DNA of 64,000 nt, from assembly GCF_003334385.1 (NCBI RefSeq), contig NZ_QOWN01000012.1; one strand, given 5' to 3'. The position numbers were made by a program, and so were the translations under genes. The stretch is from Escherichia coli. GTDB taxonomy: Bacteria; Pseudomonadota; Gammaproteobacteria; Enterobacterales; Enterobacteriaceae. Every line of letters starts with the position of its first letter. Within the stretch, counting starts at the first letter, position 1. Of this stretch, positions 1,192 through 1,618 are shown in pieces. A model generated the notes under the pieces. The model was not told the origin of the DNA, ran no database searches, and saw only the letters and a list, made by a program, of their open reading frames with translations.

Positions 1192-1332
1192 TGCTGTTGT
1201 CTGCTCCTGGTAAATGCTTTTTCCTGCACTATGACACAATTTTGTGTCAGGTTGCATATACCGAAGCCGTCGGCGGGTAACATTTGTATCCGTGGTTAAA
1301 AGCGCAGCTTAAAAGATCAGGGATTTGCGCTA

Positions 1333-1563
1333 ATGCATTTCGCTCAGCGAGTTCGCGCCCTGGTTGTGTTGAATGGCGTGGCGTTATTGCCTCAATTTGC
1401 CTGTAAACAGGGGCTTGCGAACGGTGAACTGGTGCGCCTGTTTGCACCGTGGAGCGGCATACCCAGACCGTTGTATGCTTTATTTGCGGGGCGAAAGGGG
1501 ATGCCTGCCATTGCGCGATATTTTATGGATGAGTTAACCACGCGGCTTGCCAACGGGGTCTGA
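1333..1563 (+). pseudogene. yqfE: LysR-family regulator C-terminal remnant (yqfE-like pseudogene)
   Basis: 76-aa ORF resembling only the C-terminal substrate-binding end of a LysR regulator, with no N-terminal HTH; located between argP and rpiA as in K-12. Confidence 0.5.
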
Positions 1564-1618
1564 ATCGCTTTTTTTGTATATAATGCGTGTGAAATTTCAT
1601 ACCACAGGCGAAACGATC

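Follow-up and report, generated by a model that had tools for sequence, protein, structure and literature searches.

In the 64,000-nucleotide stretch of Escherichia coli DNA that was analysed (contig NZ_QOWN01000012.1, hereafter the window), the genes argP and rpiA are separated by a spacer of 427 bp at 1192-1618, in which the sole plus-strand open reading frame (ORF) of any size starts with ATG and encodes 76 amino acids. The initial annotation, which was made from the letters of this DNA, had placed a 'yqfE-like' ORF of 76 aa between the two genes. The position proved exact, and the ORF is base-for-base identical to yqfE (b2915) of MG1655 (NC_000913.3, 3059381-3059611), which is annotated there as a pseudogene. 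The whole spacer is 100% identical to that of K-12 strains; it is matched by all of the 5426 complete E. coli genomes, and in 5158 of them at least 80% of its length is covered at one place. The name given by UniRef to the 76-aa sequence is 'Uncharacterized protein YqfE'. The features of the spacer and its surroundings, as well as those of a gene cassette that occupies the same place in other strains, are collected in Table 1. Two further features are unrelated to yqfE: the window starts, on the minus strand, within the 5' end of scpA (sbm, methylmalonyl-CoA mutase; 1-94), and the type I toxin gene ibsC is annotated 3' of serA in the K-12 record (L001, 5804-5863).

Table 1. Features of the argP-rpiA interval in the window and of the cassette that other strains keep there. 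Positions are those of the window unless a locus is named; L003 is the cassette-bearing locus of NZ_CP048605.1.
Feature	Position	Length	Strand	Description	Basis
argP (iciA)	298-1191		-	Intact LysR-family gene, left neighbour, outside the remnant	ORF list; RefSeq WP_000828351.1
argP-proximal leader/upstream DNA	1192-1247		.	Common to cassette strains; left breakpoint after 1247	blastn
Filler at deletion junction 1	1248-1291	44 bp	.	Replaces 1687 bp: NOX-like gene, DUF1471 gene, azoreductase stop codon	
Azoreductase-like 3'-end remnant	1292-1370		-	Residues 182-207 of 209, stop lost	tblastn; DNA 88-91% to loci L002-L006
LysR-derived segment	1371-1563		+	Last base of codon 235, codons 236-298, stop	blastn; junction sequences read
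yqfE (b2915)	1333-1563	76 codons	+	Chimeric ORF, the MG1655 pseudogene	ORF list; Pfam; tblastn
Spacer before rpiA	1564-1618	55 bp	+	TATAAT at 1579-1584, 35 nt before the ATG	Sequence
rpiA	1619-2278		+	Right neighbour	ORF list; reference annotation
serA	2534-3766		+		ORF list/annotation
Cassette, absent from the window	L003 2515-5805 (NZ_CP048605.1 4054123-4057413)				
NOX-like ferric-reductase protein (annotated ferredoxin-reductase family)		441 aa	-	Ferric_reduct TM + FAD_binding_8 + NAD_binding_1	
DUF1471 periplasmic protein		86 aa	-	Closest to BhsA, YhcN, RclB	
FMN-dependent NADH-azoreductase-like protein		209 aa	-		
LysR family regulator	Stop at L003 5805; rpiA start at 5861	298 aa	+	Divergent from the three minus-strand cassette genes	

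The ORF carries the end of a LysR-type protein. Pfam LysR_substrate (PF03466) matches ORF residues 15-72 with positions 151-208 of its 209-position model (i-E 7.1e-7), and weak NCBIfam matches, likewise C-terminal, were obtained with AaeR (E 1.2e-4; profile positions 227-290 of 303) and, over the last ~60 profile positions, with PRK14997 and YafC. HTH_1 (PF00126) was not found in the 76-aa ORF by Pfam. A functional LysR-type regulator is expected to have a winged HTH, a complete PF03466 effector domain of ~209 positions and a length of ~300 aa; the ORF has no winged HTH, covers residues 236-298 of a 298-aa protein, and is 76 aa long. Upstream, its frame is closed 11 codons 5' of the ATG and the other frames are rich in stops. 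Since a DNA-binding domain is absent and about one quarter of the effector domain is left, the yqfE product would be unable to act as a regulator.

A word-indexed search of proteins, with the 76-aa sequence as query, gave Escherichia and Shigella fragments of at most 110 aa and no full-length parent. The parent LysR first surfaced through a 92-aa match (P0019) with a different, LysR-like N-terminus, and was later confirmed in clean genomes. The source of that match is a public 'E. coli' assembly (L002; GCA_046507405.1, JBKFET010000002.1) that is full of frameshifts: argP, rpiA, serA, and all the cassette genes are split into several ORFs, and the argP-rpiA spacer is 3.1 kb longer. The frameshifts are presumably uncorrected long-read errors; the gene calls of this assembly, the 92-aa match among them, are artefacts, and the structure of the locus is real.

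In other E. coli strains the parent is an intact LysR protein of 298 aa, with whose C-terminus ORF residues 14-76 are identical at 62 or 63 of 63 positions, a similarity well above what chance would give. In strain Santai (L004; NZ_CP007592.1), the 3' end of the intact gene agrees with the LysR remnant in every one of its 189 coding bases. The homology is significant and collinear and the position is orthologous, as expected of descent from a LysR gene, of which K-12 keeps 21%. When the intact LysR was compared with the whole 64-kb window by tblastn, residues 229-298 alone matched, at 1351-1560 (E 2e-36), and residues 1-228, with the HTH part, were found in none of the frames. The same type of search gave no further significant match in the 64-kb window for the intact LysR, DUF1471, and NOX-like proteins. 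The initial annotation had described the ORF as the C-terminal effector-binding end of a LysR regulator without an HTH-encoding part upstream; the Pfam and tblastn results agree with it on both points. It had also expected that TBLASTN across 1192-1618 would locate a disrupted N-terminal portion. The C-terminal part is indeed matched there, but the N-terminal part is deleted rather than disrupted.

The intact gene belongs to a cassette that lies between argP and rpiA in a spacer of 3416 bp. A search with the extra spacer DNA found this cassette in 248 of the 5426 complete E. coli genomes (4.6%), always on the chromosome. The order annotated in L003 and L004 is argP (-), ferredoxin-reductase family gene (-), DUF1471 gene (-), azoreductase gene (-), LysR gene (+), and rpiA (+). 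The order argP-cassette-LysR-rpiA is also present in three cryptic lineages, namely E. whittamii, Escherichia sp. E1V33, and Escherichia sp. MOD1-EC7003. In a MAG of Pseudocitrobacter the genes between argP and rpiA follow the same order, but the azoreductase is missing, and the LysR gene is intact, with 73% identity. Intact LysR alleles are found in the 248 complete genomes, E. whittamii, and E1V33. The LysR gene of MOD1-EC7003 is frameshifted, and the NOX-like gene is fragmented, independently, in E. whittamii, E1V33, and MOD1-EC7003, as well as in some E. coli. Therefore, with the NOX-like gene broken in three Escherichia lineages and the LysR gene in one of them, the cassette is decaying across the genus.

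The intact LysR alleles have dN/dS ratios of 0.06-0.27, which indicates purifying selection. A divergent gene arrangement is classic for LysR regulators, and the intact LysR most probably controlled the divergent azoreductase-like operon, as judged from this arrangement, from the dN/dS ratios, and from a 64%-identical full-length LysR homologue elsewhere, which has HTH_1 and lies in another genomic context, there too transcribed divergently from a Flavodoxin_2 gene. The 441-aa protein of the cassette may be 'EcNOX' (UniProt L2VL28, E. coli KTE10; Hajjar et al. 2017, PMC5676040). Its domain architecture fits EcNOX; a cluster look-up did not return L2VL28.

Alignment of the window with the cassette-bearing loci maps the breakpoints. 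On the left, window 1-1247 corresponds to L003 1253-2500 with 99.7% identity and the match ends at 1247; on the right, window 1371-3000 corresponds to L003 5613-7242, and the region from the remnant through rpiA and serA is 99.4% identical over 1630 bp. Between these flanks a piece of the azoreductase gene is retained. Residues 182-207 of the azoreductase match window 1369-1292 on the minus strand (tblastn; 77% amino acid identity over 78 bp, E 1.6e-8), and window 1313-1370 corresponds to L003 4209-4266, within the azoreductase gene, with 88% DNA identity (91% to L004). The first deletion comprises 1687 bp (L003 2501-4187), in place of which the filler stands, and the second comprises 1346 bp (L003 4267-5612), with its junction between 1370 and 1371 at a short TTGG-type microhomology, the junctions having been read directly. 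The arithmetic of the spacer closes (3416 - 1687 + 44 - 1346 = 427). The two deletions together took LysR codons 1-235 and most of the three neighbouring genes, and the 3' remnant of the azoreductase gene was kept. Both junctions are common to all six of the non-cassette strains sampled, strain 536 and an O157:H7 strain included.

Some observations concern the scar itself. The filler gave no significant match in any cassette-bearing locus by local alignment on both strands. Its derivation from the azoreductase segment beside the retained piece is not claimed, as the best match there (24/32) scores inside the range of shuffled sequences. Within the spacer, polymorphism is highest in the filler (pi 0.055). 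At the second junction there is a step in divergence, with the azoreductase remnant differing at 5-7 of 58 bases (9-12%) from every intact allele seen and the adjoining LysR remnant being 0-0.5% diverged from intact alleles. This step points either to recombination on the right-hand side of the junction or to a donor allele that was old or divergent.

The ORF runs across the second junction. Its codons 14-76 are LysR residues 236-298, and codons 1-13, with the ATG, are read from the opposite strand of the azoreductase remnant. Since this ATG is already found on the antisense strand of the azoreductase gene in its intact form, the start of the ORF is accidental and the ORF is a fortuitous chimera.

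The most probable history of the locus can be described as follows. The ancestral 3416-bp spacer would have held NOX-like, DUF1471, and azoreductase-like genes on the minus strand and the 298-aa LysR gene, divergent from them, on the plus strand. Two deletions, or one complex event, would then have cut the spacer to 427 bp in the K-12 lineage and in about 95% of sequenced E. coli. One of them would have taken 1687 bp out and brought the 44-bp filler in, and the other would have removed 1346 bp across the TTGG microhomology, by which the 3' end of the azoreductase gene was fused in antisense to LysR codon 236. The chance ATG in the antisense strand would have opened a frame of 76 codons that ends with the last 63 LysR residues, that is, a remnant without the DNA-binding domain.

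Strains with the remnant do not conserve its frame: it was variously found with a 45-bp deletion, with a premature TAG, or broken by frameshifting deletions. In a sample of 60 evenly spaced genomes, the full 251-bp segment with the ORF is present in 39, an in-frame 45-bp deletion in 10, and the intact LysR in two, while eight match in the 3' half only (O157:H7 type) and one in the first 51 bp only, these nine being without an annotated ORF. Further damage (the 45-bp deletion, the premature TAG, or larger deletions) is found in about 30% of E. coli overall and in 19 of the 58 remnant-bearing genomes of this sample; in about 65% of E. coli genomes the frame of 76 codons is uninterrupted. Of the 5426 genomes, only 3747 are matched by a 51-bp probe (window 1390-1440) that spans the internal 45-bp segment. 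In O157:H7 DEC4E and in Z1323 the ATG is changed to TTG and the CAG at codon 5 to TAG, and in E09 deletions of 89 bp and 24 bp destroy the frame.

Both the loss of essential parts with respect to an intact orthologue and the lack of frame conservation are what a pseudogene is expected to show. The best explanation, to which we give a probability of about 0.93, is that the ORF is the known pseudogene yqfE of K-12, left as a scar by gene loss and without function. What speaks against it is the 76-codon frame still open in about 65% of genomes, the codon-structured diversity of the LysR-derived part described below, and, at the junctions, the filler and the step in divergence. We infer that the yqfE remnant would have no function as a protein.

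Among the alternatives, the one that survives best concerns the DNA rather than the frame. It holds that the remnant is retained as non-coding DNA, with upstream elements of the rpiA promoter on the right and elements of the argP promoter on the left setting limits to deletion, and we consider it possible but rather doubtful. The distance from the LysR stop to the rpiA ATG is 55 bp in intact and deleted strains alike, and the TATAAT within it is the probable -10 element of rpiA, so that any -35 or UP element would have to lie at or in the 3' end of the remnant. Seven diverse strains show hardly any variation in the final ~60 bp of the ORF, all further deletions encountered fall 5' of this part, and the 56 bp beside argP (1192-1247) are near invariant among seven strains as well (pi 0.005). 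It follows that upstream elements of the rpiA promoter may reach into the last bases of the remnant. On the other hand, a consensus scan of 1100-1700 gave 0 promoters and 0 terminators that met the criteria, and in two of the seven sampled strains (Z1323 and E09) an ERIC-like insertion of ~125 bp directly upstream of the TATAAT separates the remnant from rpiA and is evidently tolerated. Therefore, a strict dependence of rpiA on the remnant is unlikely. Such a role would account for the persistence of the last few tens of base pairs and not for the nature of the ORF, and it is compatible with the explanation of the locus as a deletion scar.

An Rfam search of 1000-2700, with E values up to 1, found no RNA family. 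In two loci, L012 (NZ_CP148331.1) and L013 (NZ_CM143881.1), an insertion of ~125 bp lies between the yqfE stop and rpiA, at the equivalent of window ~1580; its place is within the TATATAAT motif 5' of rpiA, and TATAAT is regenerated at its right end. From its ERIC1R/ERIC2 primer sites, we take the ~125-bp insertion to be an ERIC (enterobacterial repetitive intergenic consensus) element.

It is very unlikely that the chimeric 76-aa ORF is translated into a working small protein, for instance a free C-terminal LysR subdomain that binds to a related LysR protein or poisons its oligomerisation. Such a protein would find some support in the intact ATG frame with a weak Shine-Dalgarno-like motif (AGGGA, 10 nt 5' of the ATG), in the preservation of this frame in the majority of genomes noted above, and in its annotation by PGAP as a CDS in many of them, under the automatic labels 'LysR substrate-binding domain-containing protein' and 'hypothetical protein'. 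Diversity in the LysR remnant is also lower at first and second codon positions than at third positions (pi 0.025, 0.009, and 0.067, respectively), although these values, like the pairwise Nd/Sd, come from few substitutions and are confounded by variation shared with intact alleles. However, at first and second positions the remnant is several-fold more diverse (4-10 times) than the flanking argP and rpiA codons (pi 0.001-0.004), and the codon-structured diversity may be attributed to variation inherited or recombined from intact alleles, from which it would be expected equally as from residual constraint. The frame is lost or disabled in all sampled O157:H7-type alleles and in about three tenths of genomes in total, and its start codon is an accident of the antisense azoreductase sequence. 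The 63 LysR residues cover 58 of the 209 positions of the effector model and, by the domain architecture of LysR proteins, would be unlikely to fold alone. In addition, yqfE is dispensable: the reduced-genome strain DGF-298, which is viable, lacks it (PMC10652928). A new gene created by accident through the deletion, with a translated product that modulates a related LysR regulator or is otherwise co-opted, is accordingly given very little weight.

The last alternative, in which the ancestor had the short spacer of K-12 and a minority of strains gained the 3.4-kb cassette as an inserted island, is effectively refuted, for although the cassette is present in just 4.6% of complete E. coli genomes and its alleles are unusually diverged from each other (94-96%), an insertion cannot yield the 3' ends of two cassette genes, correctly oriented, in K-12, the gene order is common to three cryptic Escherichia lineages and Pseudocitrobacter, and the cassette flanks in the annotated records L003 and L004 have neither mobility genes nor repeats. 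Since the two 3' ends stand in their proper relative orientation and the cassette is found at the same place in several lineages, the short state would be derived by deletion, and from these alignments we infer loss rather than gain as the direction of change.

The scar explanation leaves the relation of the lost gene to its neighbour argP to be considered. The initial annotation had regarded the ORF as a decayed paralog next to argP. Decay and membership of the same LysR family stand, and a local duplication of argP does not. By BLASTP the intact LysR and ArgP share at most 25% identity over 36 residues (E 0.016). Against NCBIfam the intact LysR aligns end to end with PRK14997 (169 bits), YafC (153 bits), and AaeR (128 bits), and the ArgP models rank only 22nd-23rd (52-54 bits against a cutoff of 297); it is thus no closer to ArgP than to other LysR subfamilies, and a tandem argP duplicate was rejected on both grounds. 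Over its first 90 residues the intact E. coli LysR aligns with LysR models and with the N-terminal-domain structure 7trv. Its closest solved structures are PDB 3szp and 3t1b ('Transcriptional regulator, LysR family'; E 3e-36), which we take to be AphB of Vibrio cholerae. The ancestor of yqfE is an unnamed member of a LysR subfamily, most probably the regulator of its own cassette, and not a duplicate of argP.

The locus is already known, as an annotated pseudogene in the reference genome and as UniProt YQFE_ECOL6. What is added to the yqfE record here is the chimeric start and the lost cassette: the scar would mark the place of a lost small redox cassette, one still carried by about 5% of E. 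coli and by cryptic Escherichia lineages. This is of use for cleaner annotation and as a minor case of decay by deletion, and no new biology is involved.

Compared with known systems, the ORF of the window agrees with yqfE b2915/YQFE_ECOL6 in sequence, position, and orientation, and that record gives neither a product nor an origin. ArgP (IciA) belongs to the same superfamily as the yqfE ancestor and is encoded by the adjacent, divergently oriented gene, but similarity between the two is barely detectable. The intact LysR scores far below the equivalog cutoffs of PRK14997 (380 bits), YafC (470 bits), and AaeR (425 bits), and is therefore not an ortholog of a named regulator. The direct counterpart of the remnant is the intact LysR of E. 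coli PapRG-06-5 (WP_000568126.1), which, like its alleles and unlike yqfE, has HTH_1 and a complete effector domain; its residues 236-298 match yqfE codons 14-76, and its gene ends at the same place, 55 bp 5' of rpiA.
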